Shown: one piece after another, positions 4,633 through 60,106 of the stretch
Numbering within the stretch: position 1 is the first letter of the stretch
Layout: the number at the start of each line of letters is the position of its first letter
NCBI GenBank assembly: GCA_041659685.1
Contig: JBAZXV010000006.1
Span: forward strand, 2,032-66,031
Direction: 5' to 3'
Source of the DNA: Parcubacteria group bacterium
Lineage (GTDB): Bacteria; Patescibacteriota; Minisyncoccia; Moranbacterales; UBA11712
Length of the DNA stretch: 64,000 nucleotides
The notes under the pieces: generated by a model
Told to the model about the DNA's origin: nothing
What the model saw: only the letters and a program-made list of their open reading frames with translations
Databases searched by the model: none
Made by a program: the position numbers and the translations under genes

Positions 4633-7065
4633 ATGGAAATAGGGTACATAAAACCAAGAGAAATAACGAAAGAGATGAAAGAGTCTTATCTCGCTTACGC
4701 GATGAGTGTTATCGTATCGAGAGCTCTTCCGGATGTTCGTGACGGGATGAAACCGGTCCATCGCCGGATTCTTTATGCCATGCGCGGGTTGGGTCTAACC
4801 CATGCGGCGAAATACAGAAAGTCGGCTACGGTAGTCGGAGAAGTACTCGGAAAATACCATCCGCACGGAGATTCTGCTGTTTACGACTCTATGGTGAGAC
4901 TCGCGCAGGATTTTTCCATGCGCTACCCTCTTGTCGACGGACAAGGGAACTTCGGATCAATGGATGGAGACAGCGCGGCGGCGATGCGTTATACGGAAGC
5001 CAAGCTTATGCCTCTGGCTGAAGAAATGATGGCCGATATTGAAAAGGATACGGTCGATTTTATACCCAACTATGATGCGTCAAGAGAGGAGCCCTCTGTT
5101 CTCCCGACCAAAGTTCCCCAGCTCCTTCTTAATGGTACGATGGGAATCGCAGTCGGAATGGCGACAAATATTCCTCCCCATAACCTGGGAGAATTGGTTG
5201 ACGGCCTTATCCATATTATTGAAAATCCGGATTGTGAGGTAAAAGATCTGATGAATTTCGTAAAGGGGCCCGATTTTCCGACCGGAGGATCGATTTTCAA
5301 TCAAAATGACATAAACCAGGCATATCTTACGGGGCGGGGCGGGATAGTTACGCGAGCCGAGACTGAAATTATGGAAACCAAAAACGGCCAATTCCAGATT
5401 ATCGTAACCGAGATGACCTATGCGTCAAACAAAGCAACGACCATATCAAAGATCGCCGAACTCGTGAAAACGGGAAAGATTGAGGGAATCAGAGACATTC
5501 GGGACGAATCAGATAAAGACGGAGTAAGGATTGTCATTGAACTCAAGAAGGAAGCTTTTCCAAAAAAGGTCCTTAATAAGCTTTACAGCCTTACCGATCT
5601 TCAAAAATCGTTTCATGTGAATATGCTGGCGCTTGTGGACGGAATTGAACCGAAGATTTTAAATCTCAAGGCAATATTGGAGCATTTCATCAACCACAGG
5701 CGTGTGGTTGTTACCCGCCGGACAAAATTCGATCTTCAGCGGGCCAAGGATCGCGCGCACATACTTGAAGGACTCAAAAAGGCGCTTGACCATATCGATG
5801 CCGTGATTAGCACAATAAGAAAATCACCCGACAAGGAGGCAGCCCATTCAAACCTTATGAAAAAGTTCAAGCTTTCCGATAAGCAGGCAGCCGCTATTTT
5901 GGAAATGAGGCTTCAGACGCTTGCCGGGCTTGAAAGAAAGAAAATAGAAGATGAATTGAAGGAAAAAAGAGGGTTCATAAAAGAACTCGAAGATCTTCTG
6001 AAGAGTCCCAGAAAGATTTTGGGCGTCGTGAAGAAAGAGCTTACGGAACTCAAGGAGAAATACGGAGATGAGAGAAAAACGCGCGTCGTGAAATCGGCCG
6101 TGGGCGAGTTTAAACAGGAGGATCTTATTCCCAATGAGGAGACAATCATCGTTCTTACGGAAGATGATTACATCAAACGCATGCCTCCTTCGTTTTACCG
6201 TGTTCAAAAAAGAGGCGGAAAAGGCGTGATCGGAGCGGCAACCAAAGAAGGAGATACGATTGATCGGGTGGTGACCGCCATGACTCATGACAGTCTTTTC
6301 TTTTTTACAAACACCGGCAAGGTGTTCCAATCCATGGCCTATGAAATTCCCGTTTCGTCGCGAATTGCCAAGGGTCAAGCCATTGTGAACTTTCTCCAGA
6401 TTGCGCAAGGCGAAAAAATTACCGCCATTATTTCAATCAGCAAAGACAGCCAGGCAAAATACCTGTTTATGACCACCAGACTGGGAACAGTAAAAAAATC
6501 AGCCATTTCTGATTTTGCCAAAGTCCGGCGTTCCGGCCTTATTGCTTTAAATCTGGCAAAGGATGATGAGCTTCGATGGATTGCGCCTATAGCGGGGAAG
6601 GATGAAATAATAATAACAACGGCTTCCGGTCAGGCTATTCACTTCAAGGAAACGGACGTTCGTCCGATGGGACGCGGGGCGGCTGGAGTACGCGGAATCA
6701 AACTAAAAAAAGATGATCTGGTAGTCGGAATGGATCCTGTTTTCAAGGAACAAAAGGGAAATCAACTGCTCGTTCTTACTGAGAACGGATTTGGGAAAAG
6801 AACAGACTTAAAAAGCTATAAAATTCAGCGGCGGGGCGGCTCAGGGATTAAAACCGCAAAGGTAACACCTAAGACGGGAAAACTGGTTTCAGCCCACGTA
6901 GTCAACACAGACGGACTTGAGGCGGATCTGATTGCAAGTTCCGCTAAAGGCCAGATAATCCGAACACCCCTAAAAACCATTTCTGTTTTAGGAAGAGCTA
7001 CGCAGGGGGTGCGCGTAATGAGGTTTAATCAAGACGACAAAATTGCGGCCACGACGGTTCTCTAG
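4633..7065 (+). CDS. gyrA: DNA gyrase subunit A
   Basis: 810 aa; N-terminal signature [28 protein letters not shown] with the active-site Tyr region; C-terminal beta-pinwheel repeats. Confidence 0.93.
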
Positions 7066-7328: not shown

Positions 7329-8768
7329 GTGAATAAAAAAATATCCGTAGCGGCATTTCTTCTTATTCTGCTCATTACGTTTTCCGGTTGCGGGTGCAAA
7401 GCGCCAACCTCAAGCTATCAAGTCAGTCTCGAAGTCTGGGGTCTTTTTGACGATTCCGACGTGATGGCGAAGGTAATAAATGAATATAAAAAACGAAATA
7501 CTTTCGTCAAAGAAATAAATTACAAAAAATTGACGGTCGATTCTTACGAGAATGACTTGAGGGACGCTTTGGCATCCGGCAAGGGTCCTGATATTTTTTT
7601 AATTCATAATTCTTGGCTCTCAAAACATAAAGACAAACTGGCACCGGCGCCTGATTCGGTCATAAATGCAAAACAAATTCAGGATGCATTTGTTGATGTT
7701 GTGTCTCAGGACTTTGTAAGAGAGTCAAAAGTCTACGCCCTTCCTCTTTCCGCGGACTCTCTCGCCCTCTATTACAACAAAGATCTGCTTAATCAGGCGG
7801 GAATTTCGGTTCCTCCAAAAACCTGGCTGGAGTTTGATGATGCGGTTAAAAAAATTACAAAAATCGACACATTCGGGAATATCGTTGTTTCGGGGGCAGC
7901 CATGGGATCTTCGAGCGATGCCAGCGCGGGAGAAGGCAAAATTAACCGGGCGACCGACATCTTAACGGCCATTATGATGCAAGCAGGCGCGGAAATGTAT
8001 GATGCTGAAAGCAACACCTCCACCTTTGCGAAATTCGCCAACAAAAACATCAGTACCGGCAATCAAATACCTCCCGGACAAGCGGCGCTGAACTACTACA
8101 CAAAGTTTTCCAATCGGGATAATTTGGAATACTCATGGAATTCGACCATGCATAACTCCGTTGACAGCTTTATTGAGGGGCAAACGGCGATGACTTTGAA
8201 TTATTCGTGGCTATTGCCGAGAATTCAGTCAAAAGCGCCAAAATTAAATCTCGGAATATCAACTCTTCCGCAAAACATTGATGCAAACGGCAAGGGCCTT
8301 AATCTGAATTTCGCCAATTACTGGGGATTCGCAGTTTCGAATAATAAGGTAATCGAGAGCGGCGTGGATTCAGGCGTTTCCAACGCCCAAGCCACCAATG
8401 ACCAAAGGATCGGGGAGGCCTGGAGGTTCATACGTTACCTTACGATGCCGCCTTCGTACAGCCAGGACGCAGACTTCAAAGCCGCCCAGGACCCGAAATA
8501 TGACCCGGCGGCGGAATATGCGGCGGAGCAAAAAAAGCCGGCTGCCCGAAGGGATATTATCGAAACGCAGAAAAGCGACATTTTGATGGCGCCTTTTGCT
8601 GAAGGAAACCTAGTGGCAAAAAGCTGGCCGCAGCCGGATAATTTGGCCGTAGAGAGGATATTCGATGAAATGATCGACGATGTTGCTCTTCGGAACGCTG
8701 ATTCTCGAAAATCAATCGAACAAGCCCAGAAGGATGTCGATTTATTGATCAAGAAAGATTCTTTGTAA
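7329..8768 (+). CDS. Extracellular solute-binding lipoprotein (ABC-type substrate-binding protein family)
   Basis: 479 aa; lipoprotein signal peptide ending FSGCGC; size and composition typical of sugar-type substrate-binding proteins common in CPR genomes. Confidence 0.45.
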   Translation: MNKKISVAAFLLILLITFSGCGCKAPTSSYQVSLEVWGLFDDSDVMAKVINEYKKRNTFVKEINYKKLTVDSYENDLRDALASGKGPDIFLIHNSWLSKHKDKLAPAPDSVINAKQIQDAFVDVVSQDFVRESKVYALPLSADSLALYYNKDLLNQAGISVPPKTWLEFDDAVKKITKIDTFGNIVVSGAAMGSSSDASAGEGKINRATDILTAIMMQAGAEMYDAESNTSTFAKFANKNISTGNQIPPGQAALNYYTKFSNRDNLEYSWNSTMHNSVDSFIEGQTAMTLNYSWLLPRIQSKAPKLNLGISTLPQNIDANGKGLNLNFANYWGFAVSNNKVIESGVDSGVSNAQATNDQRIGEAWRFIRYLTMPPSYSQDADFKAAQDPKYDPAAEYAAEQKKPAARRDIIETQKSDILMAPFAEGNLVAKSWPQPDNLAVERIFDEMIDDVALRNADSRKSIEQAQKDVDLLIKKDSL

Positions 8769-8780
8769 TCTAAGGATGTA

Positions 8781-10100
8781 ATGGGATTATTCGCCTCAGA
8801 AAAAAAAAGCAAAACAAAAGCTATTTTGATAGTTGTTTTTGTTTTGGCCGCGGGGCTGTTTTTTTCCGGTAAAGCGCTAGCCTGTACATCCGGCGAATGT
8901 CGCCCCACTTGCTTTGACACGGAAAAACCGACGGGAGAAGGCTGCACCGTTTCGGCGGATGGTTTCACTCAAGAAGGATCCTGCTGTGAAAAAAAGAGCG
9001 GCACTGATCTGGTGAGCGGAAAAGTTTGTTCTGAAGACAAAGGAATGGTAGCAGGAAGATGTTACGTCAGCGGCTCAGCGGGAATGGCCGGTTGCTCGGG
9101 AATAGGCCCGGGGTTGGCATTGGGGGAAAAAGGAGAGATGGGTTGTCCAAGCGATCAAATTTGCTGCAAAACGCAGGAATATCAAGATGCAACTCAGGGA
9201 AAGCCGGAAACGTCATCAAGTTCACCGTCTTCCCCCGCGGCAGCGGTTTCGCCCTCTAGCTCAGGAATTGCGGGCGGCCTCGTTCCCTGCAAAGACGATT
9301 GCACTCTTTGCCATCTGGTAATTGGTTTCAAAAGCATTTTTGATTGGCTGATGGGTCTTCTGTTTATTGCGACAATGCTTATTATAACGGTTTCCGGAGT
9401 GTTCTATATGGTGTCAACCGGGAGCAAAACAATGATAGATAAGGCCAAAAAAGCGCTCACATATGCGCTTACCGCCTTTGTAATCGGCATGGGATGCTGG
9501 CTCATGATCAATATCATCATGACGATGCTCGGGTTTTCAAATCCTCTAGGAGGAAATTGGTGGGAGTTTACCTGCGACACGACGCAGACCAAAGGGGCGG
9601 CCCCGAGTTCTTCTCTGCCAACTTCCGGGCAACCGGCCGGGGATTACAAGCCGTCTCAATGCGCGGACGGAGCGCTCAAAAACGCTATGGCACTTAAGGA
9701 TCAGACGATTTATGATCAAGGGCCGCTCAGGGGGAAAAAGGATTCAAACGGTTACTGGCACCTGGATTGCTCGGCGTTTGTGAATAAGTGTTGGCAGGAT
9801 GCCGGGCTCAAAAGTCCCGGCGGTTCCACTAAACAAATGACAGCAAGCAGTTCCATTAATAATGGAAACAGAAACTCCTTCGGTGCCGGCGATCTGTTGT
9901 TGGTCTCCGGACATGTTGTGATGTGCATGGATCAGGGCTGCAAACAGGTTATCCACTCGTCCGGAAAAGATGATAATGTTAAAATATCAAACGGAGATTA
10001 CTATATCAGCAAAGGCGCGGGGGTTATTCGGGCGGCGGATTACGGCGGCAGCTCGTGCAAAACCACTATGCTCAAAATTTTTCCGTCGCGATATAATTAG
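8781..10100 (+). CDS. Secreted three-part protein: Cys-rich ectodomain, VirB2/TrbC-like pilin TM hairpin, and C-terminal NlpC/P60-type cysteine peptidase domain
   Basis: 439 aa. Signal peptide; more than 12 Cys in the first 150 aa. Central two-helix hydrophobic module (FIATMLIITVSGVFYMVSTGSK...KAKKALTYALTAFVIGMGCWLMINIIM) resembles the downstream pilin paralogs. C-terminus has DCSAFVNKCWQDAGL plus GHVVMC, a Cys/His catalytic pattern of NlpC/P60-like hydrolases. Confidence 0.5.
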   Translation: MGLFASEKKSKTKAILIVVFVLAAGLFFSGKALACTSGECRPTCFDTEKPTGEGCTVSADGFTQEGSCCEKKSGTDLVSGKVCSEDKGMVAGRCYVSGSAGMAGCSGIGPGLALGEKGEMGCPSDQICCKTQEYQDATQGKPETSSSSPSSPAAAVSPSSSGIAGGLVPCKDDCTLCHLVIGFKSIFDWLMGLLFIATMLIITVSGVFYMVSTGSKTMIDKAKKALTYALTAFVIGMGCWLMINIIMTMLGFSNPLGGNWWEFTCDTTQTKGAAPSSSLPTSGQPAGDYKPSQCADGALKNAMALKDQTIYDQGPLRGKKDSNGYWHLDCSAFVNKCWQDAGLKSPGGSTKQMTASSSINNGNRNSFGAGDLLLVSGHVVMCMDQGCKQVIHSSGKDDNVKISNGDYYISKGAGVIRAADYGGSSCKTTMLKIFPSRYN

Positions 10101-10112
10101 CCTGTAAAATTT

Positions 10113-10856
10113 ATGAAAAAAAGATATATCATAATATTAATCGTTATTGTTTCGGCCATTATTATTTTGGCTGCTATCAATTTTTTTAAGGAACAAAATA
10201 AAAAAACAAGCCAGCAAACGGAAGAATCAAGTGAAAGCCAGGCGGGTGACGGATTGCCTGACCTGCCGGGTATAGACAGAAAGGAATTTACGGCAGGCGG
10301 CCAAAACAGCCTTTCGGAGCAAATAGATTCCTATGTTGATTCCCAAACAGAAAGCAGGCCTTCTTCGGGAGAAAACAAAGAATTGAAAGATATCCAGTTT
10401 AAAGACAAGGAAGGAAACCCTATTCCGCTTAATGATTTTGAGAAAGCGGTTGGAATAAAAGTTGATGACCAGCTCCAGAAATACTTAAAAAGCGGAGATT
10501 ACAGCTTTATGGTATGTTCCGGCAAAGATGGCGAAGAAAATCACGGTCTGCTCCTGAATATCAGGCTTCTCAGTAAAGAAGAGACTTTTCCCGACGTCAT
10601 AAAAATATTATCAAGGTGGGAGCCGAGCATGCTTTCGGACCTCAGTGGGATACTTTTCAAAAACGCGTCTCTCGGCGAATCCGATCTCTCGAAAAAAATG
10701 GAATTTAAGGATGGAAAGTACAGGTATGCCGAACTTACCCTCGAGAACGGAAAAAAAATCAGTTTGAATTATGTTTGGGTGGATGATTATGTAATATTCG
10801 CCACCTCACTTGAATGCACGGATGAAATATATGATTATGTGTATGGCGCTGATTAA
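10113..10856 (+). CDS. Hypothetical secreted or membrane-anchored protein
   Basis: 247 aa; N-terminal TM/signal anchor; no recognisable motif. Confidence 0.4.
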   Translation: MKKRYIIILIVIVSAIIILAAINFFKEQNKKTSQQTEESSESQAGDGLPDLPGIDRKEFTAGGQNSLSEQIDSYVDSQTESRPSSGENKELKDIQFKDKEGNPIPLNDFEKAVGIKVDDQLQKYLKSGDYSFMVCSGKDGEENHGLLLNIRLLSKEETFPDVIKILSRWEPSMLSDLSGILFKNASLGESDLSKKMEFKDGKYRYAELTLENGKKISLNYVWVDDYVIFATSLECTDEIYDYVYGAD

Positions 10857-10874
10857 GTGTCTAATGGAATACAG

Positions 10875-11465
10875 ATGAAAAAATTTTTTATTTTAGTTCT
10901 CTCTCTCGCCTCCCTTTTCGCGGTTTCGAAAGGCATTTTTGCCGCTTCTATGGATTTTTCCGAAAATATCCAGACCGTAAAGACGCTTGACGAGCTTTTG
11001 ACCAGCACGTCGGGTTATCTCAACGTTGTGGCCGGAACGATTGCGGTAGTCTTTATTATCATCGGGGCGTCTTTCTATGCCGTGGCCGCTTTTGGAAAAA
11101 AAGATATGACCGATCTCGGAAGAAAAATCATAATCGTCGCGGTCGGAGGATTTGCAGTGGTTGTCGGAGCGCCGGTAATCTATAAGGAAATAATGAACAT
11201 TCTCAACGGTGATCCTTCCAGTGTGGCAGAAAGTTCTTCCATGGCGAAGATACTCCTGAGGACTCTGGAGGGATTTGCCTATTTAGTGGGACTTTACGCG
11301 ATAATGGGTTTTCTTATCGGCGGAATCACCTATTTTATATCCTTCGGGGATGAAACAAGAAACGAGCGGGCAAAAAAAATTCTGAAGTTCACGCTTATTG
11401 GAAGTTTAATCGCAATCGGTTCAATGGTTATCGCAAAACAGATAGTAACCTTGCTTGGCGGATGA
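10875..11465 (+). CDS. VirB2/TrbC-like pilin family protein with two tandem pilin modules
   Basis: Signal peptide MKKFFILVLSLASLFAVSKGIFA. Two modules of hydrophobic helix, short charged loop, hydrophobic helix (AGTIAVVFIIIGASFYAVAAFGKKDMTDLGRKIIIVAVGGF... and ...GGITYFISFGDETRNERAKKILKFTLIGSLIAIG...). The ATG at 10875 is preferred over the upstream ORF-track start. Confidence 0.5.
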   Translation: MKKFFILVLSLASLFAVSKGIFAASMDFSENIQTVKTLDELLTSTSGYLNVVAGTIAVVFIIIGASFYAVAAFGKKDMTDLGRKIIIVAVGGFAVVVGAPVIYKEIMNILNGDPSSVAESSSMAKILLRTLEGFAYLVGLYAIMGFLIGGITYFISFGDETRNERAKKILKFTLIGSLIAIGSMVIAKQIVTLLGG

Positions 11466-11496
11466 CTCGAATTGAATAACGGATAAAATTAAAGAA

Positions 11497-12276
11497 ATGA
11501 AAACGAGAAAAAAAATAATTTTATTTTTTCTGGCGGCGCTTATATTCGGAGCACTTGCCTTTTCCGGCAATGAATCCCTGGCTGCAAATTGCGCCTATAA
11601 TTGTTTTCCTTCGGTTTGTCCGGAGGGAACGAGCGGAATTTCAGGAGAATGCAAAGACAAAGACGGGTATGTCTGTTGCGCGGGAAGCCCGACTGGTTAC
11701 GTCGGGGATCCGCTTTCAGGTTTTAATCCCAATGCCTCATCGGGATCTTCCGGCGCAAACAGCGACACTGGCGTGATAAATCCAATAAGCGCCAATTCTT
11801 TTTCGGATCTTTTCCAAAGCGCAATGAATTATTTTAAGACTATTGCCGGAACCGTGGCGGTTCTTTTTATAATACTGGGCGGAGTAATGTATATGGCATC
11901 CGGCGGAAATTCCGGGATGACGGAACGGGCAAAAAATACTCTCATATACGCAATGGTAGGGCTGGTGGTCGTGGTGGCCGCTCCCCTCTTTCTTTCTGAC
12001 ATCCTGCTTGTTCTTAAGGGCAGCGGCGGAGGCGGCGGTTCAAGTCTTCTTACGATCGTAACAAATGTTCTCAAGGTTCTTTTGGCATGCGTCGGAATTT
12101 TTGGTATACTGGGAATATTGAACGGATCAGTCATCATGTTTATTTCTTCGGGGGATGAGAAAACGATCGAAATGGGAAGAAACGCGGTTAAGTATTCGCT
12201 CATCGCCATCGCTCTCTCGGCCGGCTCCCTGATTCTGGTGCAGACATTCATGGCCATGATACTGGTTAAGGACTAA
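11497..12276 (+). CDS. VirB2/TrbC-like pilin family protein with a Cys-rich N-terminal domain and two pilin modules
   Basis: 259 aa; signal peptide; Cys-rich segment NCAYNCFPSVCPEGTSGISGECKDKDGYVCCAG. Two hydrophobic hairpin modules (AGTVAVLFIILGGVMYMASGGNSGMTERAKNTLIYAMVGLVVVV and ...IMFISSGDEKTIEMGRNAVKYSLIAIALSAG...); internal Gly-rich linker. Confidence 0.5.
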   Translation: MKTRKKIILFFLAALIFGALAFSGNESLAANCAYNCFPSVCPEGTSGISGECKDKDGYVCCAGSPTGYVGDPLSGFNPNASSGSSGANSDTGVINPISANSFSDLFQSAMNYFKTIAGTVAVLFIILGGVMYMASGGNSGMTERAKNTLIYAMVGLVVVVAAPLFLSDILLVLKGSGGGGGSSLLTIVTNVLKVLLACVGIFGILGILNGSVIMFISSGDEKTIEMGRNAVKYSLIAIALSAGSLILVQTFMAMILVKD

Positions 12277-12369
12277 GAACGGGTGTTTCCCGTTTTGGCC
12301 GCAAAATAAAAACAGACATCGGAAAGTTAATTTATATATTTTTTATAATTATTGAAAGGAGGTGACGAT

Positions 12370-12723
12370 ATGAATAAAATAAAGTCAGTTATTAGAAAAA
12401 TCGGAATTGGAGCGGTAGTGATTCCCTTTACGGCCCTGGCTCAGTTTCAGCCTCCTTCCGGAACGAATCTTCCGCAATCTTCTATTTATGACATCATCAG
12501 AGGCGTTATGATGTGGGTGTTGGGACTTCTCGGTTTTTTCGCGGTTATCGGTTTTGTGATCAGCGGTATAATGTATCTTGTGGCGGCTGGAGACGAGGAT
12601 TCGCAAAAAAAGGCGAAGAAAGCCATGTATTATTCCATAACCGGGGTGATTGTCGGTTTGGTTGGTCTGGTTGTGATATATGCCGTCAACAAATTGCTGG
12701 GAACAACGTCAACTCAGTTCTAA
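12370..12723 (+). CDS. VirB2/TrbC-like pilin family protein (single module)
   Basis: SD AAGGAGGTGA 5 nt before the ATG at 12370 (the ORF-track TTG start at 12352 overlaps the SD). Signal peptide, then ISGIMYLVAAGDEDSQKKAKKAMYYSITGVIVGLVGLVVIYAVN. Confidence 0.55.
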   Translation: MNKIKSVIRKIGIGAVVIPFTALAQFQPPSGTNLPQSSIYDIIRGVMMWVLGLLGFFAVIGFVISGIMYLVAAGDEDSQKKAKKAMYYSITGVIVGLVGLVVIYAVNKLLGTTSTQF

Positions 12724-12900
12724 GGCGCGTTATATTGCCGATACTATCATTAGCGGCTCTCGACAAGAGGGTCGCTTTTCTATTTCCTGACTGAAAATAT
12801 CGATTTGGGATAAAATCCGGACTATTTCCAGTTTTTAAAATGTATTATATAATCAGGTTGGGAGAATTCTTCGCGAAATAATCAATCTAAGAGAAATAAA

Positions 12901-13269
12901 ATGAAAAACAAAATTGAAAAAACGCTTGCTTTGACAGTAGGTTTCGTTGGAAGTGTCAGCGCCGCTTTTGCTGCTCCAAGCGGATGGAGCACCTCGAATT
13001 ATTCCGGCATGGGTCTTCCGGGCGGATCTATTTATAATATAATCAGCAATACAGTGATGTGGGTTCTGGGTATTTTCGGTTTTATTGCCATAATCGGTTT
13101 TGTGATCAGCGGTATAATGTATCTCACGTCCGCCGGAGACGATGCCGCCATGAAAAAAGCTAAAAATCAGATGACCTGGTCCATAATCGGAGTCGTTGTC
13201 GGATTGGTCGGATATATAGTCATATATGCGGTTAATTCCATGCTCGGCGGGATATCCACCAGTTTCTAG
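12901..13269 (+). CDS. VirB2/TrbC-like pilin family protein (single module)
   Basis: 122 aa; signal peptide; ISGIMYLTSAGDDAAMKKAKNQMTWSIIGVVVGLVGYIVIYAVN, near-identical core to the next paralog. Confidence 0.55.
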   Translation: MKNKIEKTLALTVGFVGSVSAAFAAPSGWSTSNYSGMGLPGGSIYNIISNTVMWVLGIFGFIAIIGFVISGIMYLTSAGDDAAMKKAKNQMTWSIIGVVVGLVGYIVIYAVNSMLGGISTSF

Positions 13270-13294
13270 AAAAATTAATTAATCAGCCAGCAAA

Positions 13295-13648
13295 ATGAAA
13301 AAAACAAAGGGAGTCATTTTTTGCGCGTTAGTCATTTTTTTATTTTTCTTTATCGGAAAAGCCTCTGCTGACGGAGTACTTCTTCCGGATGTCGGGCTTC
13401 CCAGCAAGGGACTCCCGGATATTATCGAAGGTCTCGTTAAATGGCTTTTGGGAGTTTTCGGTTTTCTGGCGATTCTCTCCTTTATTATCAGCGGAGCGAT
13501 GTATTTTTTTTCCGCCGGAGACGATGCCGCCATGAAAAAAGCCAAAAATCAGATGAAGTGGTCCATAATCGGCGTTGTTGTCGGTTTGATGGGATATGTC
13601 GCTATTGCGGCCGTCGATTCGGCATTGCGGGGGAACGGCTTGGGATAA
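13295..13648 (+). CDS. VirB2/TrbC-like pilin family protein (single module)
   Basis: 117 aa; signal peptide; ISGAMYFFSAGDDAAMKKAKNQMKWSIIGVVVGLMGYVAIAAVD. About 85-90 percent nt identity to the preceding gene over ~100 bp, indicating a recent tandem duplication. Confidence 0.55.
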   Translation: MKKTKGVIFCALVIFLFFFIGKASADGVLLPDVGLPSKGLPDIIEGLVKWLLGVFGFLAILSFIISGAMYFFSAGDDAAMKKAKNQMKWSIIGVVVGLMGYVAIAAVDSALRGNGLG

Positions 13649-13748
13649 GAGTCAGCGGGCAAAAGGCGGATAAACAGAGCAACGCTTTTCCGGGCGTTGC
13701 AATTTTTTCTCCAAGCTGATATCATTTTTCATTGTCAGCGCGAAAAAT

Positions 13749-13829
13749 GCCGGGGTGGTGGAATGGCAGACACACTAGCCTTAGGAGCTAGCGGGGCAAC
13801 CCATGGAGGTTCGAGTCCTCTCCCCGGCA
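13749..13829 (+). tRNA. tRNA-Leu (anticodon UAG)
   Basis: Manual cloverleaf: acceptor GCCGGGG/CCCCGGC; anticodon stem CTAGC/GCTAG with loop CTTAGGA; long variable arm; T-arm GGAGGTTCGAGTCCTCT; discriminator A. Confidence 0.8.
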
Positions 13830-13831
13830 CG

Positions 13832-14515
13832 ATGATAAATATTGTTTTCCAAAGCGAAGATTTGATAGCTGTTGATAAGCCGGCCGGCTTAACCGTACAC
13901 GTCGGTGCCGGAGCAAAGGAAGAAACACTGGTTGATTTCCTGAAGGAAAAATTTCCGGAGATAAAAAATGTCGGAGATGATCCCGATGTTCGTCCGGGAA
14001 TCGTGCACAGACTCGACAAAGACACGTCCGGGATTATGCTGGTTGCCAGGAACCAAAAATCCTTTGAATACCTGAAGGAGCTTTTCAAAAATCGCCGGAT
14101 AACAAAAAAATATTTGGCCCTTGTTTACGGGAAAATGACTCATGCAGAGGGAAAAATCGAGGGAGAGATGGGAAGATCAAGGCGGGATTTCCGAAAACAA
14201 GCGTTAGTCCGGGGAAAGATAGACGTCAGAAAAGAGAGGTATTCCCTGTCTTACTATAAGCTCCTTCAGGAGCTTAACGAAAATTCTTTACTGGAGGTTA
14301 GCCCTAAGACCGGTCGGATGCATCAGATTAGGGTCCATCTTCACTCTATCGGGCATCCGATCGTCGGAGACAAAAAATATACCTTCAAGAAATATAAAAA
14401 TCGGGAAGATATCAGGATGTTTCTTCATGCAAGCGAAATATCCTTAACTCTGCAAAATGGCGAAAAAATCACCTTAAGAAGCGAATTACCCCAGGAGTTT
14501 AGTGGCTTATCTTGA
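13832..14515 (+). CDS. RluA-family pseudouridine synthase
   Basis: Motif HRLDKDTSGIMLVARN with catalytic Asp. True start is the ATG at 13832 immediately after the tRNA; the ORF-track start at 13697 reads through tRNA-Leu. Confidence 0.8.
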   Translation: MINIVFQSEDLIAVDKPAGLTVHVGAGAKEETLVDFLKEKFPEIKNVGDDPDVRPGIVHRLDKDTSGIMLVARNQKSFEYLKELFKNRRITKKYLALVYGKMTHAEGKIEGEMGRSRRDFRKQALVRGKIDVRKERYSLSYYKLLQELNENSLLEVSPKTGRMHQIRVHLHSIGHPIVGDKKYTFKKYKNREDIRMFLHASEISLTLQNGEKITLRSELPQEFSGLS

Positions 14516-15173: not shown

Positions 15174-15257
15174 GCCGTGGTGCCGGAATCGGTAGACGGG
15201 CCAGCTTGAGGGGCTGGTGTCCATAAGGACGTGGGAGTTCGAGTCTCCCCCACGGCA
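15174..15257 (+). tRNA. tRNA-Leu (anticodon GAG)
   Basis: Acceptor GCCGTGG/CCACGGC; anticodon stem CCAGC/GCTGG with loop TTGAGGG; long variable arm; T-loop TTCGAGT. Confidence 0.8.
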
Positions 15258-15259
15258 CC

Positions 15260-15333
15260 TCGAACGGGAAAGGGGTCGGGAAAACGGGAGTTTCCCCGTG
15301 GCGGAAGAATTGAAACCGAGGGGTTTCAAAGAG
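15260..15333 (+). repeat. tRNA-associated ~74-bp repeat, copy 1 (TCGAACGGGAAAGGGGTCGGGAAAACGGGAGTTTCCCCGTGGCGGAAGAATTGAAACCGAGGGGTTTCAAAGAG)
   Basis: Starts 2 nt after the tRNA-Leu discriminator; contains an 8-bp hairpin TTGAAACC-GAGG-GGTTTCAA. It is followed at 15351-15370 by a duplicated 3' fragment of tRNA-Leu (GAGAGTCTCCCCCACGGCAC). Confidence 0.85.
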
Positions 15334-15371
15334 GCGTGAAGCGACGAAGTGAGAGTCTCCCCCACGGCACC

Positions 15372-15405
15372 TCGAACGGGAAAGGGGTCGGGAAAACGGG
15401 AGTTT
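15372..15405 (+). repeat. tRNA-associated repeat, truncated copy 2
   Basis: Identical first ~33 nt (TCGAACGGGAAAGGGGTCGGGAAAACGGGAGTT), then diverges; follows the duplicated tRNA-Leu 3' fragment. Confidence 0.7.
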
Positions 15406-15483
15406 TACCTCGGAGAAAGGTATCTGAAAGGGAATATTGATAACAATATTTATTTTTTTGGACAGTATTTTGAATTAATAAGC

Positions 15484-15557
15484 GGGCGCGTAGCTCAGTT
15501 GGTTAGAGCATCTGTCTTACAAACAGAGGGTCAGAGGTTCGATTCCTCTCGCGCCCA
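15484..15557 (+). tRNA. tRNA-Val (anticodon UAC)
   Basis: GGGCGCGTAGCTCAGTTGGTTAGAGC...; anticodon stem TCTGT/ACAGA with loop CTTACAA; T-arm GGTTCGATTCC; acceptor 3' CGCGCCC-A. Confidence 0.85.
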
Positions 15558-15558
15558 C

Positions 15559-15632
15559 TCGAACGGGAAAGGGGTCGGGAAAACGGGAGTTTCCCCGTGG
15601 CGGAAGAATTGAAACCGAGGGGTTTCAAAGAG
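15559..15632 (+). repeat. tRNA-associated ~74-bp repeat, copy 3
   Basis: Identical to copy 1; followed at 15633-15663 by a duplicated 3' fragment of tRNA-Val (CGAGGTTCGATTCCTCTCGCGCCCAC). Confidence 0.85.
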
Positions 15633-15666
15633 CGCAGCGAGGTTCGATTCCTCTCGCGCCCACATT

Positions 15667-15705
15667 GCCGGGCTAGCTCAGTCCCGCCGGGGGCGGGCAG
15701 GGTCC
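15667..15705 (+). pseudogene. tRNA-like chimera: 5' acceptor/D-arm of tRNA-Phe fused to a CCCGCC...GGCGGGCAGGGTCC GC-hairpin module
   Basis: GCCGGGCTAGCTCAGT is identical to the tRNA-Phe 5' end, then CCCGCCGGGGGCGGGCAGGGTCC. No anticodon arm or T-arm. A related module occurs at 34967-35025. Confidence 0.5.
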
Positions 15706-15753
15706 GAGCAGAGGACTTGAGTTTAAAGTAAAATTAACATCCGAATAATTCTA

Positions 15754-15825
15754 GCCGGGCTAGCTCAGTGGTAGAGCAGAAGACTGAAAATCTTTGTGTG
15801 CCCAGTTCGATTCTGGGGCCCGGCA
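15754..15825 (+). tRNA. tRNA-Phe (anticodon GAA)
   Basis: GCCGGGCTAGCTCAGTGGTAGAGC; anticodon stem GAAGA/TCTTT with loop CTGAAAA; T-arm CCCAGTTCGATTCTGGG; discriminator A. Confidence 0.85.
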
Positions 15826-15840
15826 CAGTTAATGTAATCT

Positions 15841-15912
15841 GCGGGCGTCGTATAGTGGCCATTACACGGCCTTGCCAAGGCTGAAACGGCGGTTCGATTC
15901 CGCTCGCCCGCT
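15841..15912 (+). tRNA. tRNA-Gly (anticodon GCC)
   Basis: Acceptor GCGGGCG/CGCCCGC with discriminator U; anticodon stem CGGCC/GGCTG with loop TTGCCAA; T-loop TTCGATT. Confidence 0.8.
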
Positions 15913-15952
15913 CAGAAAACGAAAGAATCCCCCCCCCTGGGGGATTTTTTTG
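15913..15952 (+). terminator. Rho-independent terminator of the tRNA cluster
   Basis: AATCCCCC-CCCT-GGGGGATTTTTTTG; the stem includes a C9 homopolymer. Confidence 0.65.
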
Positions 15953-16646: not shown

Positions 16647-17219
16647 ATGCGTATTTTGGCCAGCACGATCCTGTTAAGCCTTGTCCTTAATTTCGCGATT
16701 ATTGCCAGGGCAAAAGCCGAAGAAGTTTCAAACCAAAATACAGAACAAAAACCAAAATATCAATCTGACGAAAGAATTGCGAATGGAGAAAAGGGGGATA
16801 CGCAACTTAAGATTGTTAAGATCGCCTCGGTTAATAACAGTTTTATCGCGCCGACATATATATCCGAAGGCTCTTCGAAAAATTATAGCAGACTGAAAAA
16901 AATAAGTCCGACAGCAACACGCAATATTCCTTCAGGGAGTTTTGTCATGAATGCCAGCGCCTATACGGCTTCGGCCGATGAGTGCGGGAAAAGTGATGGA
17001 ATTACTGCTTCCGGAGCGAGAGTACAATCCGGAAGAACCCTGGCTTGTCCTTCGGTCTACCGCTTCGGAACCAAGGTTGAAATTGAAGGAATGGGAACAT
17101 ATATCTGCGAAGATCGCGGAGGCGCCATCAAGGGAAACCACTTTGACATTTATATGAAGACAAAGAAAGAGGCTTTCTCTTTTGGCCGGAGGAATCTTGT
17201 AGCATCAGTTATCGAGTAA
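16647..17219 (+). CDS. 3D-domain (MltA/YabE-like) secreted protein
   Basis: 190 aa; signal peptide; C-terminal 3D-domain pattern with conserved Asp residues (ASAYTASADECGKSDGITASGARV...GTYICEDRGGAIKGNHFDIYM). Confidence 0.6.
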   Translation: MRILASTILLSLVLNFAIIARAKAEEVSNQNTEQKPKYQSDERIANGEKGDTQLKIVKIASVNNSFIAPTYISEGSSKNYSRLKKISPTATRNIPSGSFVMNASAYTASADECGKSDGITASGARVQSGRTLACPSVYRFGTKVEIEGMGTYICEDRGGAIKGNHFDIYMKTKKEAFSFGRRNLVASVIE

Positions 17220-21308: not shown

Positions 21309-23900
21309 CTAATTCTGAGGCGGATTTTGCTGTTCATTCGTATTCTCAATCGGCGTTTCCGGCGGAACAGGCTGCTGCTCGCGCTGGACAGAAGGTTGAT
21401 TTTGCTCGGACTGGCCGCTGGTGCTCTGGTTTACAGCACTTTCTTCAAGTCCGCTGAGGGCGCTTTTCCCTGCCTCCAAGTTTGAGACAATTTTTTTAAT
21501 ATCTTCGTTGTCAGGATTCAACTCAGCCACTTTTTTGAATTGTTCAAGGGCTTTTTGCTTGTTGTTTTGTTTGTCATAGATGAGGCCGAGAAAGTATCGG
21601 GCGTTGGAATAATTTTCGGCGAGTTTAACCGCCTGTTCGAGCTCCGCCTTGGCCTGGTCGTATTTTTCCGCTTTATAATAGAAAACTCCAAGCTGGAAAA
21701 TGATGCCCACATCCTGAGAATTCATTTGCTTGCTTTCTTCCAACTTTGCAATGGCTTCATCAATTTTACCGAGTCTGTCGAGAGTTACGGCAATCATAAA
21801 CTGGGCGGGAATGTAGTTGTTTTTTGCATCAACAGCTTTCTCGAAGTTCTGCTGAGCCGAGACAATGTACTCTTTTGCCTTATCGGAAAGCTGGGGAGTC
21901 TTGCCGGATCCTTGCTGCTGGCTGGAGTTTTTTGCGGTATCGAGATCAGCCATCATGAGATATATTTGACCGATTTGGTAATAACTCGAAGGATTTTTCG
22001 GATCGTATTTCAACGATTCCAAATATTCATCTCGCGAGGCTTCGTCGGCTCCGTCTTTTGACCCGATTACATTTTGGTTGATTTGGGCGAGTTGAACGAT
22101 ATTGTCAGGATTTTTTTGATTCAAGCTGATAGCCGTTTGGGCTTCTTGTTCGGCGGCGAAATACAAGTTGCTGATTTCCGCCCGGTCATTTTCGGATAAG
22201 TTTTCTGCTCCTTTTTGGGAAATTCTGTCATTAAGGGCGGCAAATAATGCGACAGAAAGATTGCGATGATAGAGATCGCGGTTTGGGTCAAGATTAACCA
22301 CCCGGGAAAGTTTATTCACAAGATCGTCAACCTTGGCTCCCTGTACATCGCTCGCCAGGGCTTTATTGTATGCAACAGCCGCAACATATCTTTGACCCTC
22401 AAGAAAGATGAGCGAGATAAATCCGACGATGATCAAAACAAAAACAAATGAAAGAATGAGAGATACGCGCGGGGAACTGGTTTCGCTGATAATTTCCTCT
22501 TTTTTCTGGAAAAACAGGGAGGTCAGAACAATTATGGAAGCCGTAGCCACCCACCACATGAAATCGACGGTAATGTTCGACGGGTAAAGGAAATAAACCA
22601 GAGTAAGATAGAACCACATAGCTGTGAGGCCAATAAGCATATATGTTCCTTCCTGGTTTTTTCCGAATATCTTTACGAATGAAGAGAATATATACACCAG
22701 AACTGATCCAATCAGAAAAAGAAACGCAATCGCTCCGAGAAAGCCGGTTGTGGTGGCTATGGTGAAAAATCTGCTGCTGGCCTCGTTGAATTTAACCGAC
22801 CAAAAATTAGTAAGGTTGATTTCGTTCGGCTTGCTTTTCAGGTAAGCCAAATCATAAGAAGACATTCCGGGCCCAAGAAGAAAGTCATCCTTCCAGGCTC
22901 CTTTCATGACGTCATAAGAGGCGCTTGATGACAGTCCCACTTCTACCGGAAGCTGCGCCCTTACAATTGATCCTCTTTTTCCAATAAGAGTTGCGAGCAG
23001 GATCAGGGTTAAAACTACCATAGGGAATATTAAGGCCCGATTTTTTTCTTCATTTCCGCTTGTCATGATTGCTAGCCCGAGAAGAATAGCCATGCCAATC
23101 AAGAACACGATGAGAGAAGTTCCGAAATTTACCATTATAATGGTAAAGATAAAGATCAAGGAGAAAATAATAAGAGCAATTTTAACCGGAAGGGATTGCT
23201 TCTCGAGAAGCATCGCAACCGTAAGAATCAGAATGGCTCCTACGAAAATAGCCAGAGCATAAACAGATCCTACGGAATTAAATGAATTTTGGGCGACAGC
23301 CTGATTTTTAAAGATGAACTTTCCAAATATTTGAAATATTGCGTAAATATTGGCAATGGCGGATGATCCGATGATAGTCAAGGCCAGAACATTTATTTTT
23401 TTTCTGGTGTTGAAATTATTCGTGACTACCAAAAATAACGCGATCAGCGCGACAATAGAAACCAGAGACATACTCTCTGTTCCAAAGCTTCCCCACATGC
23501 TCTGGTCCCGATAAATAGAGAAAACAGTATTAAGCGCCAAAATGAAGAGCAGTAATAGTATAGGAATAAGAAGGAAGTTTTTCTTTACTCGAATTTTTCC
23601 TTCCCAAGCAAGTTTTCCAACCCATGCCAAAAAAGCAATCCCTCCGAGAACAACGATCAGTATTTGCTTATTGAGCTCAAGTACGCTTGGAACAATCGGG
23701 AGAAAGAAGATCGGCACCAGGAAAGCGAGAAGATAAACCGCACCTGATATAATCCAGTCAATAATCTTTGGCGCCTGCGCATCTTTTTTTGGCTGGGGTG
23801 AACTTGGCGCGTTGGTCCCCTCTTCTCTTTGGCCAGCATAACGTTCCGCCGGCCTTCTCGGAGAAAGAAATTCTCCCGATCTTTTCAGATTGATTTTCAT
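21309..23900 (-). CDS. Polytopic membrane protein (O-antigen ligase/polymerase-like) with C-terminal TPR repeats
   Basis: 863 aa; more than 12 predicted TM helices in the N-terminal 500 aa; C-terminal tandem TPR-like repeats (YYKAEKYDQAKAELEQAVKLAENYSNARYFLGLIYDKQNNKQKALEQFKKVAELNPDNEDI); Q/P-rich extreme C-terminus. Confidence 0.45.
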   Translation of the reverse strand: MKINLKRSGEFLSPRRPAERYAGQREEGTNAPSSPQPKKDAQAPKIIDWIISGAVYLLAFLVPIFFLPIVPSVLELNKQILIVVLGGIAFLAWVGKLAWEGKIRVKKNFLLIPILLLLFILALNTVFSIYRDQSMWGSFGTESMSLVSIVALIALFLVVTNNFNTRKKINVLALTIIGSSAIANIYAIFQIFGKFIFKNQAVAQNSFNSVGSVYALAIFVGAILILTVAMLLEKQSLPVKIALIIFSLIFIFTIIMVNFGTSLIVFLIGMAILLGLAIMTSGNEEKNRALIFPMVVLTLILLATLIGKRGSIVRAQLPVEVGLSSSASYDVMKGAWKDDFLLGPGMSSYDLAYLKSKPNEINLTNFWSVKFNEASSRFFTIATTTGFLGAIAFLFLIGSVLVYIFSSFVKIFGKNQEGTYMLIGLTAMWFYLTLVYFLYPSNITVDFMWWVATASIIVLTSLFFQKKEEIISETSSPRVSLILSFVFVLIIVGFISLIFLEGQRYVAAVAYNKALASDVQGAKVDDLVNKLSRVVNLDPNRDLYHRNLSVALFAALNDRISQKGAENLSENDRAEISNLYFAAEQEAQTAISLNQKNPDNIVQLAQINQNVIGSKDGADEASRDEYLESLKYDPKNPSSYYQIGQIYLMMADLDTAKNSSQQQGSGKTPQLSDKAKEYIVSAQQNFEKAVDAKNNYIPAQFMIAVTLDRLGKIDEAIAKLEESKQMNSQDVGIIFQLGVFYYKAEKYDQAKAELEQAVKLAENYSNARYFLGLIYDKQNNKQKALEQFKKVAELNPDNEDIKKIVSNLEAGKSALSGLEESAVNQSTSGQSEQNQPSVQREQQPVPPETPIENTNEQQNPPQN

Positions 23901-24130: not shown

Positions 24131-25603
24131 CTAGCGCATGCTAGCGTGAAAAAATTTTTCTGCCGATAATTTAAGAAAAATTATTGGGATAAAGAAAACA
24201 ATCATTCCAAGCTTAATATCCCAAAAATAGTGATCAAACAAGGAAATGAAAAGAAAAGAAAATATAATACAATAAAAAGATAAGTATGTCAACTCTCCAT
24301 ATGATATGCTTTTTCTATTGATCTTCGGCCTCATGGTCACAGAAAAGAAAAGGAGTAAGAATATAACCCCAACGATTCCTAGCTCGCTAAAGACTAATAG
24401 GTAGATATTGTGAACGGGTTGGTATTGCCATCCTTCCATGTCTGGATATTTTTTAAATTCGCCAAAAACAAATTGCCCTATGCCGATTCCTGTCAGTGGA
24501 TGGTGAGAAATTGTTTCATATGAAACACGTTGGTATAAATTTCTTTCTTCAAGTGACTGCGTAGAAAATATTGAAGTTGCATTGATATGTGATTGGGCAA
24601 AGAATGTAACGGAGATTATTAAGATAAATATTAACACGATAATCTCACGCCGAAATATTTTTTTGAACAGCAATTTTCTGAACCAAAGAAGGCCAAGTAT
24701 CAGGCCAAGCAGGAGTCCAATAATTGCAGATCTCGAAAATGTTAATAATAATCCCATTAATAAGATTGCAAAGGTGATGACCAAGAATTGAGTTGGTATG
24801 TGATAAAAAAAAGTTCCACGTGAAACTTCCATATTGTTTTTTGCAAATACAAGACGTTTTAGCAGTAATGACAAAATAAAGAAAATTGTGATTATCAAAA
24901 AACCAGCTAAAATATTGGGATGCGGAAATGTTCCGTAGGCGCGAATATGCTTTTCTCCCCGTATGATTATTTTTGCTACCCCTTCGATGTTGCTGGCCAA
25001 AATACTCTCGCCCATCCAATGGATTCCGACTGATCTATTGAGGAAAAATTGTGCACTGCCTAAAATAGACTGAAAAAGACCGTTAATGATTAACGCCAAG
25101 AAGGCTACGTCGATCCAATTCGAGTTTTTTAGCGATTTAATGCTGATATAAGAGAAAACCAATATCTCTAAAAATGTTGAGAATCTGTAAAGCGCAAAGG
25201 CCTTATTTTGGGACCAAGAAATTGAGATTCCCATCCAAAAGATAAATACAGTTAACAATAATGTTTCACGTGAAACATTATTTAAACACTGTATTACACT
25301 TGATATAAATCGTATTACGTGGTCTAATAATGAATTATCAGATAAATCCCATACAAATTGACTATACAACCATTTTATAGTATAAATAATTATAACGGCC
25401 AACATCAGAAAATCCGCCCAACCAAGACTAGGCGTCAGGTATTCATTGAATGTTCCATCGAGAAAAGAATAAGGCGTTAAAAAAACCTTACGGATATTGA
25501 AAGAGAAAGCGGCCAAAAACAAAATGATCAAAATTTTTTCCGCATTTTGCCGGAAATACTGAAAATTTACGCGAATATTGCCCATATAAAATAAGTCTAG
25601 CAT
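24131..25603 (-). CDS. O-antigen ligase family-like polytopic membrane protein
   Basis: 490 aa; about 12 TM helices; central loop with RSAIIGLLLG-type region as in Wzy/WaaL-like proteins. Confidence 0.4.
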   Translation of the reverse strand: MLDLFYMGNIRVNFQYFRQNAEKILIILFLAAFSFNIRKVFLTPYSFLDGTFNEYLTPSLGWADFLMLAVIIIYTIKWLYSQFVWDLSDNSLLDHVIRFISSVIQCLNNVSRETLLLTVFIFWMGISISWSQNKAFALYRFSTFLEILVFSYISIKSLKNSNWIDVAFLALIINGLFQSILGSAQFFLNRSVGIHWMGESILASNIEGVAKIIIRGEKHIRAYGTFPHPNILAGFLIITIFFILSLLLKRLVFAKNNMEVSRGTFFYHIPTQFLVITFAILLMGLLLTFSRSAIIGLLLGLILGLLWFRKLLFKKIFRREIIVLIFILIISVTFFAQSHINATSIFSTQSLEERNLYQRVSYETISHHPLTGIGIGQFVFGEFKKYPDMEGWQYQPVHNIYLLVFSELGIVGVIFLLLFFSVTMRPKINRKSISYGELTYLSFYCIIFSFLFISLFDHYFWDIKLGMIVFFIPIIFLKLSAEKFFHASMR

Positions 25604-59439: not shown

Positions 59440-59449
59440 GCAAGTCGCT

Positions 59450-60100: not shown

Positions 60101-60106
60101 ACTCAC

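Follow-up and report, generated by a model that had tools for sequence, protein, structure and literature searches.

Tandem arrays of VirB2-like pilin genes have been published for the Patescibacteria (2023, 2025) and are thus a known kind of feature. In S. epibionticum, the locus of its type IV secretion system (T4SS) holds six pilins of Pfam family PF18895 next to VirB4, PrgI and a VirB6-like protein and also encodes lysozyme/Cys-peptidase and M15B-like proteins; epibiotic growth requires the T4SS genes and the pilins (Wang et al. 2023, PMC10633639 and supplement). Arrays of 2–11 VirB2-like pilin genes number 441 in 383 patescibacterial assemblies, and in the 1,948 assemblies that contain both VirB2-like pilins and VirB4, the pilins lie near virB4 in 1,135, so that separation of the two (∼40%) is common (Quinonero-Coronel et al. 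2025, PMC12102498). The possible pilus of a monoderm T4SS is described as an open question in a 2025 review (PMC12857230). Here, a pilin array was analysed in a 64-kb stretch of contig JBAZXV010000006.1 from a Parcubacteria group bacterium (the window, whose numbering is used for all window coordinates). The locus is probably a detached pilin module of the patescibacterial T4SS, placed between gyrA and rluA/rplS and apart from the VirB4 genes.

Eight closely packed genes on the + strand, comprising an upstream solute-binding lipoprotein gene (SBP) and the genes g1–g7, lie between gyrA (4633–7065) and tRNA-Leu/rluA/rplS (13749 onward). The intergenic gaps from SBP to g7 are 0–75 nucleotides, except for the g5–g6 gap of 177 nucleotides.

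7329..8768, + strand: SBP, solute-binding lipoprotein, 479 residues (Pfam)
8781..10100, + strand: g1, pilin–hydrolase fusion, 439 residues (Pfam, AlphaFold2 (AF2), Foldseek)
10113..10856, + strand: g2, bitopic membrane protein without a pilin module, 247 residues
10857..11465, + strand: g3, double pilin, 202 residues (Pfam, module profile)
11497..12276, + strand: g4, double pilin with a six-Cys head, 259 residues (Pfam, Cys motif)
12352..12723, + strand: g5, single-module pilin, 123 residues (Pfam)
12901..13269, + strand: g6, single-module pilin, 122 residues (Pfam)
13295..13648, + strand: g7, single-module pilin, 117 residues (Pfam)

An earlier reading of this DNA (the original prediction) described six consecutive same-strand genes; the six pilin genes do share the + strand but are not consecutive, since g2 (10113–10856) splits g1 from g3.

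The window pilins belong to the same Pfam family as those of the S. epibionticum ML1 array (SEML1_0014–0019) and of the 'Sec-secreted array' of N. lyticus TM7x. As in those arrays, divergent Sec-exported paralogues stand in tandem and are sometimes split by a non-pilin gene, the locus is chromosomal with no relaxase nearby, and peptidoglycan hydrolases of the same catalytic kinds occur in the system. Unlike the published arrays, the window array is located >50 kb from, or on another contig than, any VirB4. It also differs in that one pilin is covalently fused to a hydrolase, two are fixed double pilins composed of modules m1 and m2, Cys-rich heads are present, and a solute-binding lipoprotein and g2 are constant partners in loci of this type. 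The mutual identity of g5–g7 (45–63%) extends above the 54% maximum reported for arrays.

Pilin modules of the array

The six pilin genes contain eight copies of one ∼80-residue module, in which two hydrophobic helices are joined by a short Lys-rich loop, and the eight copies align with almost no gaps. Hidden Markov models (HMMs) of the module, built with one gene omitted at a time, regained each omitted gene at E ≤ 2e-14 and matched no other open reading frame (ORF) of the window, including those of the polytopic major facilitator superfamily (MFS), ZIP and Wzy_C membrane proteins. Because this recovery is specific to the six genes, the repeat is genuine and does not simply reflect hydrophobicity, in agreement with the at least eight hairpin copies proposed originally.

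Five of the proteins match PF18895 (T4SS_pilin) above its gathering threshold of 26.6 bits (g3, 31.5; g4, 62.5; g5, 42.2; g6, 38.9; g7, 40.6 bits), with two matching stretches each in g3 and g4, the two genes expected to carry two modules. The g1 protein scores 25.3 bits, 1.3 below the threshold, and is found at E 2e-14 by an HMM of the other modules. The T4SS pilin architecture, for which an HMM check had been proposed, is therefore borne out through PF18895. PF04956 (TrbC/VirB2; gathering threshold, 27.9 bits) gives sub-threshold matches to g4 (25.4 bits, E 1.6e-5) and g7 (23.6 bits, E 6.2e-5) and no match to g1, g3, g5 or g6; as this similarity is only remote, the genes are filed under PF18895 and not under TrbC/VirB2 proper. 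Matches to the 'pilin-like conjugal transfer protein' of mycoplasma integrative and conjugative elements in NCBIfam are likewise sub-threshold, with g5 scoring 35.2 bits against the Mbov_0395 pilin-like profile (cut-off, 40 bits).

A VirB2-type layout, consisting of a signal-like N-terminus, two hydrophobic helices and a short basic loop, is observed in hydropathy, sequence and the AF2 model of g1. The three single-module genes are g5, g6 and g7, as predicted, and the hydrophobic signal-like segment with an AxA-type end is found at the N-terminus of all six pilins (read by eye rather than with a predictor). The loops bear the K-rich motif KAK(K/N). In the g1 model, the hairpin helices span residues 175–211 (37 residues) and 216–249 (34 residues), and this length, greater than a plain membrane span requires, was counted in favour of pilin identity.

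VirB2 (Ti), TrbC (RP4) and TraA (F) are similarly small Sec-exported proteins with two long hydrophobic helices, a short basic loop and both ends outside, and they are related to the window pilins by remote HMM similarity (PF04956, below the gathering score). Unlike them, the window pilins come from a monoderm host and show no BLAST-level similarity to plasmid pilins (nothing significant by tblastn; best E 0.02). The g4 sequence yields chance matches only against the PDB. VirB2 and TrbC undergo head-to-tail cyclisation, of which the window pilins show no sign; the g1 type instead has four conserved hairpin-flanking Cys residues. The multi-module and enzyme-fused forms present here are not known for classical pilins.

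The module profile matches 57,656 clusters (50% identity) among 1.84 billion metagenomic representatives, consistent with the expected abundance of such paralogue families. Each of the 150 top-scoring proteins contains two to eight modules, with at least four Cys residues ahead of the first module in 79; these figures are no census because the score ranking favours multi-module proteins. Within the window, the six genes encode four conserved classes of VirB2-like pilin, namely the g1 type, the m1 and m2 modules of the double pilins, and the single pilins.

Conserved gene order and VirB4 clusters

Relatives of g1 in a species-level genome collection come almost all from Candidatus Moraniibacteriota/Moranbacteria. 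The gene order is kept in 11 genome loci and runs through a metallo-β-lactamase (MBL)-fold gene, gyrA, SBP, g1, g2, one or more double pilins, three to five single pilins, rluA and rplS. Protein identity to the window is 79–89% for GyrA, 44–73% for SBP, 31–53% for g1 and 23–33% for g2, and g5 is the most conserved pilin across relatives (53–78% in array-type loci).

SBP and g2 are thus the conserved non-pilin partners of the pilin module. SBP is a family-1 solute-binding protein that matches SBP_bac_1 (86.2 bits, 5e-24) and SBP_bac_8 (85.4 bits, 7e-24) above the Pfam thresholds. Among solved structures, it comes closest to sugar and maltodextrin binding proteins, with the match confined to the N-lobe. 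The gene ends 12 nucleotides upstream of g1, in line with the substrate-binding-like lipoprotein gene originally placed there, and no ABC permease or ATPase gene is adjacent to it at the locus. Of 12 distinct related genome loci, 11 have SBP immediately before a g1-type pilin; one of these 11, L015, has other flanks, yet its SBP stands directly before a g1-type pilin and a double pilin. The PrgZ/TraC pheromone-binding lipoproteins of enterococcal plasmids and ChvE of Agrobacterium, which capture a partner-cell signal for conjugation/T4SS systems, are likewise orphan solute-binding proteins tied to a T4SS; PrgZ is an OppA-type peptide binder, whereas the SBP of the window is, from its sequence, of the family-1 carbohydrate type. 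The g2 gene, the conserved partner after g1, encodes an N-terminal transmembrane helix, a low-confidence linker and a ∼150-residue α/β domain with two invariant Cys residues. Assignment of g2 to VirB8/PrgL (bitopic with an NTF2-like extracytoplasmic domain) was ruled out on fold.

In relatives, these genes are physically joined to VirB4. A Moraniibacteriota contig (locus L014) has one cluster that combines PrgI and a split VirB4 with a g1-type pilin whose C-terminus is LAS-like, a pilin–SLT_3 fusion, an Rce1-like protease and a 950-residue surface protein. A metagenome scan with the L014 VirB4 as the query gave 80 loci of two architectures, types A and B, whose VirB4 proteins are 71–73% identical to that of L014 in type B and mostly 76–100% identical to it in type A. 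Type A clusters run from PrgI, VirB4N, VirB4, a small transmembrane protein, the Rce1-like protease and a ∼900-residue protein to a pilin–SLT-like protein, an often hydrolase-bearing g1-type pilin and a 380-residue protein, the last being preceded in several loci by a g2 homologue (three loci give E 1e-45 to 1e-49). In some of these loci, a g1-type pilin–hydrolase and g2 stand 6.5–9 kb downstream of VirB4, and L043 (17935–19245) reproduces the g1 architecture of the window, with a Cys head, a hairpin and an NlpC/P60-like domain, followed by a g2 homologue (E 1e-45). Hydrolase-bearing orthologues of g1 are located inside T4SS clusters in L014, L018, L025, L043 and L044. In type B clusters, SBP, then a g1-type pilin and then a Cys-headed double pilin directly precede PrgI, VirB4N and VirB4, as is the case in 13 of 13 loci with enough upstream sequence. 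Where the flanks of VirB4 are complete, at least one pilin is present in 25 of 25 loci and a g1-type pilin in 19.

The gene order of the window module is accordingly found joined to VirB4 in another lineage, and g1–g2 pairs belong to VirB4 clusters in the window's own clade. As the same genes sit in the VirB4 clusters of relatives, the window locus is most likely a detached T4SS pilin module and not a stand-alone one.

Two further gene families accompany the type A clusters. An Rce1-like (CAAX/CPBP) intramembrane protease is constant in them (L014, 5016–5696; L043, 12429–13088; L025, 12251–13003; L022, 12462–13133) and is a candidate pilin-processing enzyme; no homologue of it was found in the window. 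Wzy_C (O-antigen-ligase-like) proteins are encoded directly downstream in L014 (12004–14416) and 22 metagenomic loci, and converge with the cluster in the loci inspected for orientation. In the window there are a distant Wzy_C gene (24131–25603, − strand) and an 863-residue TPR protein gene (21309–23900, − strand), ∼10.5 kb from the pilin array. The pilin O-oligosaccharyltransferases PglL and PilO are of the Wzy_C type, which, with the Ser/Pro-rich linkers of g1, makes pilin glycosylation a lead.

Fusion, double and single pilins

The g1 protein consists of five parts that are arranged as follows.

Residues 1–34: signal-like N-terminus (AF2 helix 12–28)
Residues 35–131 (nucleotides 8883–9173): two Cys-rich β units
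Residues ∼134–170: Ser/Pro-rich linker, low confidence in the model
Residues 167–267 (nucleotides 9279–9581): pilin hairpin, with conserved LVPC-x3-CTLCH ahead of helix 1 and FTCD behind helix 2
Residues 290–428 (nucleotides 9648–10064): NlpC/P60 peptidase with putative catalytic residues C330, H378 and H392

In the AF2 model, the block means of the predicted local distance difference test score are 81–88 for the hairpin helices and mostly 81–95 for the C-terminal domain, and the small β domain of the first Cys-rich unit is also modelled with confidence. The C-terminus matches NLPC_P60 (PF00877) at 29.9 bits against a cut-off of 23 bits and has a papain-like fold; a Foldseek search with this domain gave the NlpC/P60 structure 8er5 (E 1.4e-4; template modelling score 0.75 normalised to the target), LytE, MepS and RipA. 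Alignment to Spr/MepS, whose catalytic residues we take as the reference, places the triad at C330 (DCSAF versus DCSGF), H378 (GHVVMC) and H392 (VIHSS), and C330 is invariant in the alignment of the g1 family. The proposed NlpC/P60 domain, for which an HMM check had been suggested, is thereby confirmed. The nearest phage families of the peptidase domain are tail-associated lysins (PHROGs), and it also matches a diffocin baseplate protein by Foldseek; this likeness would suit a role directed outward, although NlpC/P60 domains show it in general.

Among 5.8 billion proteins searched, 38 homologues of g1 were identified, and 36 of the resulting 39 family members match PF18895 at E ≤ 0.01. The near-invariant core of the family comprises GGLVPC-x3/4-CTLCH ahead of helix 1, YMVS-G-K...AK..LTY around the loop and W..FTCDT behind helix 2. 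The Cys-rich part at the N-terminus varies or is missing, and the C-terminal domain varies among peptidoglycan hydrolases: NLPC_P60 is found in 14 of the 39 members and Amidase_5, SLT and ELLD in one each, and LAS/M15-like 'SCHYGG...D...HxH' motifs are seen by eye in several members, although a stricter regular expression did not match them. The g1 protein thus belongs to a family of pilins with four conserved hairpin-flanking Cys residues and interchangeable C-terminal hydrolases. Swapping of the hydrolase type on the same hairpin argues that selection acts on wall-lytic activity tethered to the hairpin. In the VirB4-linked type B orthologues shown, the His of CTLCH is replaced by Asp (CTLCD, CTICD) and the four Cys residues are kept, which makes a c-type heme site (CXXCH) unlikely, and this candidate was rejected. 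A disulfide or metal 'staple' that ties both outer ends of the hairpin would be the more likely role of the four Cys residues.

Other extracellular cargo also occurs on pilin hairpins. HExxH zincin-like C-terminal domains are present in P0070 (HEMGH) and L026 (16861–18585; HEQIGH), a SLT_3 lysozyme-like domain in L014 (8484–9422) and a possible Big_2 Ig-like domain as a weak match (E 0.0024); the loci listed for such cargo include L006 (11843–13561).

VirB1-like hydrolases such as PrgK (pCF10), TraG (pIP501), CwlT (ICEBs1) and TcpG contain a Cys-peptidase (CHAP or NlpC/P60) and/or a lysozyme-like domain and are needed to cross the thick wall. Like g1, they are membrane-tethered peptidoglycan hydrolases, and they are encoded with the T4SS, as are orthologues of g1. 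A VirB1-like role for the g1 hydrolase is plausible. Their anchor is a plain N-terminal transmembrane segment or a lipid, whereas the anchor of g1 is a pilin hairpin between the Cys-rich head and the enzyme, so that the enzyme could leave the membrane with the filament.

The two double pilins differ in their heads and linkers.

g3, + strand: signal-like N-terminus; m1, residues 41–118; m2, residues 119–202 (module HMM domains 41–118 and 123–202)
g4: signal-like N-terminus; Cys motif, residues 32–61; Gly/Ser-rich linker; m1, residues 93–178; GGGGG linker; m2, residues 179–259

Modules were compared among 26 distinct two-module proteins and 29 single pilins from the fetched loci. In all 26 two-module proteins, the first module is nearest to the first module of another protein and the second to a second, and all 29 single pilins are nearest to singles. 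The mean identity is 46% for m1–m1, 45% for m2–m2 and 24% for m1–m2 pairs. This separation indicates that double pilins of the g3/g4 type are, as judged from these sequences, an ancient fixed fusion of two distinct pilin classes and not a recent internal duplication. Some metagenomic proteins contain up to eight tandem modules (P0054, 820 residues, eight; P0052, six; also P0056), and in some members of this set the repeats are very similar, which suggests recent internal amplification, unlike the m1–m2 fusion. The two N-terminal Cys-rich domains that had been predicted, in g1 and g4, have in common a six-Cys motif, C-x2-5-C-x2-5-C-x6-14-C-x5-14-CC, at the start of the mature protein. Relatives have it too, and none of 1543 non-pilin ORFs from related loci contains it.

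The single pilins have a mosaic relationship. The g6 and g7 genes, originally taken for a very recent duplication with 85–90% nucleotide identity, are 60% identical overall, and 86–88% identity is confined to a ∼90-nucleotide core (loop and start of helix 2) with four synonymous differences in 26 conserved codons. Helix 1 of g5 and g6 is 77% identical at the nucleotide level, and identity elsewhere among g5, g6 and g7 is 38–66%. A recent whole-gene duplication was rejected on the overall identity and the mosaic of more similar segments, which suggests segmental exchange (gene conversion) between the pilin paralogues. Tandem VirB2 paralogues of Bartonella and Anaplasma likewise combine divergent pilins side by side with signs of segmental exchange. 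Both are diderm animal pathogens in which VirB2 variation is tied to immune evasion (as cited in PMC12102498); unlike theirs, the window pilin classes are conserved across genomes and not hypervariable.

The array is flanked and interrupted by the following elements.

12752..12776, + strand: terminator-like hairpin 3' of g5, 10-bp stem then a T run (consensus scan; weak evidence)
12825..12853, + strand: promoter-like site before g6, TTTCCA-17-TATAAT (consensus scan; weak evidence)
13679..13700, + strand: terminator-like hairpin 3' of g7 (consensus scan)
13749–13830: tRNA-Leu(tag), 3' of the g7 terminator-like hairpin

The first two elements lie in the g5–g6 gap. For g3, the ATG at 10875 is the likelier start, giving 196 residues, the same call as in L001; g5 probably starts at the ATG at 12370. 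The longest ORF of the RluA-like pseudouridine synthase (13697–14515, from a TTG at 13697) overlaps tRNA-Leu(tag), and orthologue calls are 228–299 residues long, so that the true start is probably downstream of the tRNA. A cluster of four of the 14 tRNA genes of the window (Leu-gag, Val-tac, Phe-gaa and Gly-gcc) follows rplS (15174–15913). A 190-residue protein with a 3D domain, a cell-wall-binding/lytic domain of the MltA/RlpA type, is encoded 3 kb downstream of the array (16647–17219, + strand); its syntenic place is kept in all related loci that reach that far. Envelope/host-interaction candidates unrelated to the pilin locus are a Fic/DOC-family protein (51357–52247) and a row of an HlyD-like membrane-fusion protein, a 216-residue gene and an MFS transporter (58363–61612). 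Gene orientation and GC skew both flip near 3.1–3.4 kb, between an rpsA-like S1 gene (− strand) and the MBL-fold gene (+ strand). Proximity to the replication origin, reported for some patescibacterial T4SS loci, was rejected: DnaA boxes are not enriched (18 matches versus 12.8 expected), and the skew tracks the gene strand, also at 18–22 kb, and gives no origin evidence.

Proposed function and its alternatives

In a detached T4SS pilin module, all six pilins would be exported by Sec with removal of the signal peptide, and the hairpins would insert so that both ends face outward and the Lys-rich loop (G-D/S-x5-KAK) faces the cytoplasm. Their extraction and polymerisation into a surface filament or channel would fall to a VirB4/PrgI/VirB6-type machine encoded at another site of the genome. 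The bulk of the subunits would be g5–g7, and the low-copy ones, g1 and the Cys-headed double pilins, would expose their N- and C-terminal domains outside. In F and T pili, both pilin termini face outward, so that fused domains could be displayed. The tethered NlpC/P60 endopeptidase (C330/H378/H392; a putative D,L-endopeptidase) would cut peptidoglycan stem peptides locally, in its own wall or in the wall of an attached host cell, and would do the job of the separate VirB1-like enzymes in other monoderm T4SSs. SBP and g2 may act at the same extracytoplasmic site, with ligand or signal capture as the likeliest role of SBP. The presence of ddl in the window shows that the organism makes peptidoglycan.

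Several observations weigh against this explanation. No homologue of VirB4, VirD4, PrgI, a VirB6-like protein or another T4SS core component was found in the window, as the original prediction had stated for VirB4, VirB6 and VirD4, and relatives are the only basis for expecting a VirB4 cluster elsewhere in this genome. The pilin profile matches none of the solved pilins in the PDB at the sequence level, and the top structural match of the hairpin to a conjugative pilus is insignificant (8dfu, E 3.5; Foldseek). No filament of PF18895 pilins has been visualised in any organism in the literature examined. Large domains fused to a pilin might block its packing into a helical filament, and the housekeeping neighbourhood would equally fit a core envelope function.

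The last points lead to the strongest, though unlikely, alternative, a membrane-anchored envelope complex without a filament. The sole task of the hairpins would be to hold enzymes and binding domains (NlpC/P60, Cys-rich heads) at the outer membrane face, the single-module proteins would be membrane partners or regulators, and the locus would serve the organism's own wall growth or division. Its place among housekeeping genes (gyrA, rluA, rplS, clpP and tig) is kept in the 11 genome loci, an organism with ddl needs endopeptidases for its own peptidoglycan, and the fusions are bulky (up to 444 residues C-terminally and 543 N-terminally) and awkward in a tight pilus of a family with no filament evidence. 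However, the same gene set sits in the VirB4/PrgI clusters of other lineages, and the homology is to T4SS pilins and not to generic anchors. Four pilin classes held distinct over long evolution also resemble a hetero-oligomeric assembly more than interchangeable anchors. In S. epibionticum, moreover, the pilin array is part of the T4SS locus, and both are essential (PMC10633639).

The stand-alone surface-filament or adhesion locus suggested by the original prediction, which would assemble without any T4SS ATPase, is more doubtful still. The absence of T4SS core genes within 64 kb and the putative promoter and terminator sites of the array would suit it, but the conserved locus contains no assembly ATPase, platform or secretin-like gene, and the identical module order occurs beside VirB4 in relatives (type B). 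To our knowledge, all known VirB2-type pilins depend on a VirB4 machine. Moreover, pilins and VirB4 are commonly apart, in ∼40% of the patescibacterial genomes with both (PMC12102498).

A remnant of a phage lysis or virion-lysin cassette, in which a class-II-holin-like hairpin is fused to an endolysin, is close to refuted: the two-helix hairpin with both termini out resembles class II holins, g6 has a faint Phage_holin_2_1 match (E 0.016) and the NlpC/P60 domain resembles phage tail lysins and the diffocin baseplate protein, but no g1-family relative was found in 2.9 million viral contigs, the pilin modules have no PHROG match except a weak one for g3 (E 3.4e-4), all six proteins have Sec-type signal-like N-termini, and the chromosomal position is conserved with no phage genes nearby.

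A speculative and rather improbable reading is that SBP, the Cys-bracketed pilin–hydrolase, g2 and the double pilin form a host-wall-harvesting device. The pilus would bring lineage-swapped hydrolases (NlpC/P60, LAS/M15-like, SLT-like, CHAP) to the host wall, and the carbohydrate-type SBP would capture released material or a glycan of the host surface, serving import or signalling. The whole basis of this proposal is the conserved gene linkage and the likeness of the peptidase to phage-tail lysins and the diffocin baseplate. If it is true, the patescibacterial T4SS would be at least partly an uptake or feeding organelle and not an export machine.

No mention of pilin–hydrolase fusions, multi-module pilins, Cys-rich heads or a linked SBP was found in the papers cited above or in full-text searches, an absence that is no proof of novelty. 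Relative to that literature, the g1 fusion family, the ancient fixed double pilin and the SBP/g2 partnership are new, within a system that is not of a new kind. The sole genetically tractable patescibacterium cannot grow as an epibiont without its T4SS and pilin array. The locus bears on whether a monoderm can build a VirB2-type pilus. Together with its relatives, it supplies testable parts, including a pilin–peptidase fusion with a lineage-swapped enzyme, a two-pilin fusion, six-Cys heads, an SBP and a bitopic partner. With these parts, a breach of the host wall, sensing of the host and uptake of material by the machine can be approached directly, by way of the specificity of the enzyme for self or host peptidoglycan, the ligand of SBP and antibodies against the heads on the outside.

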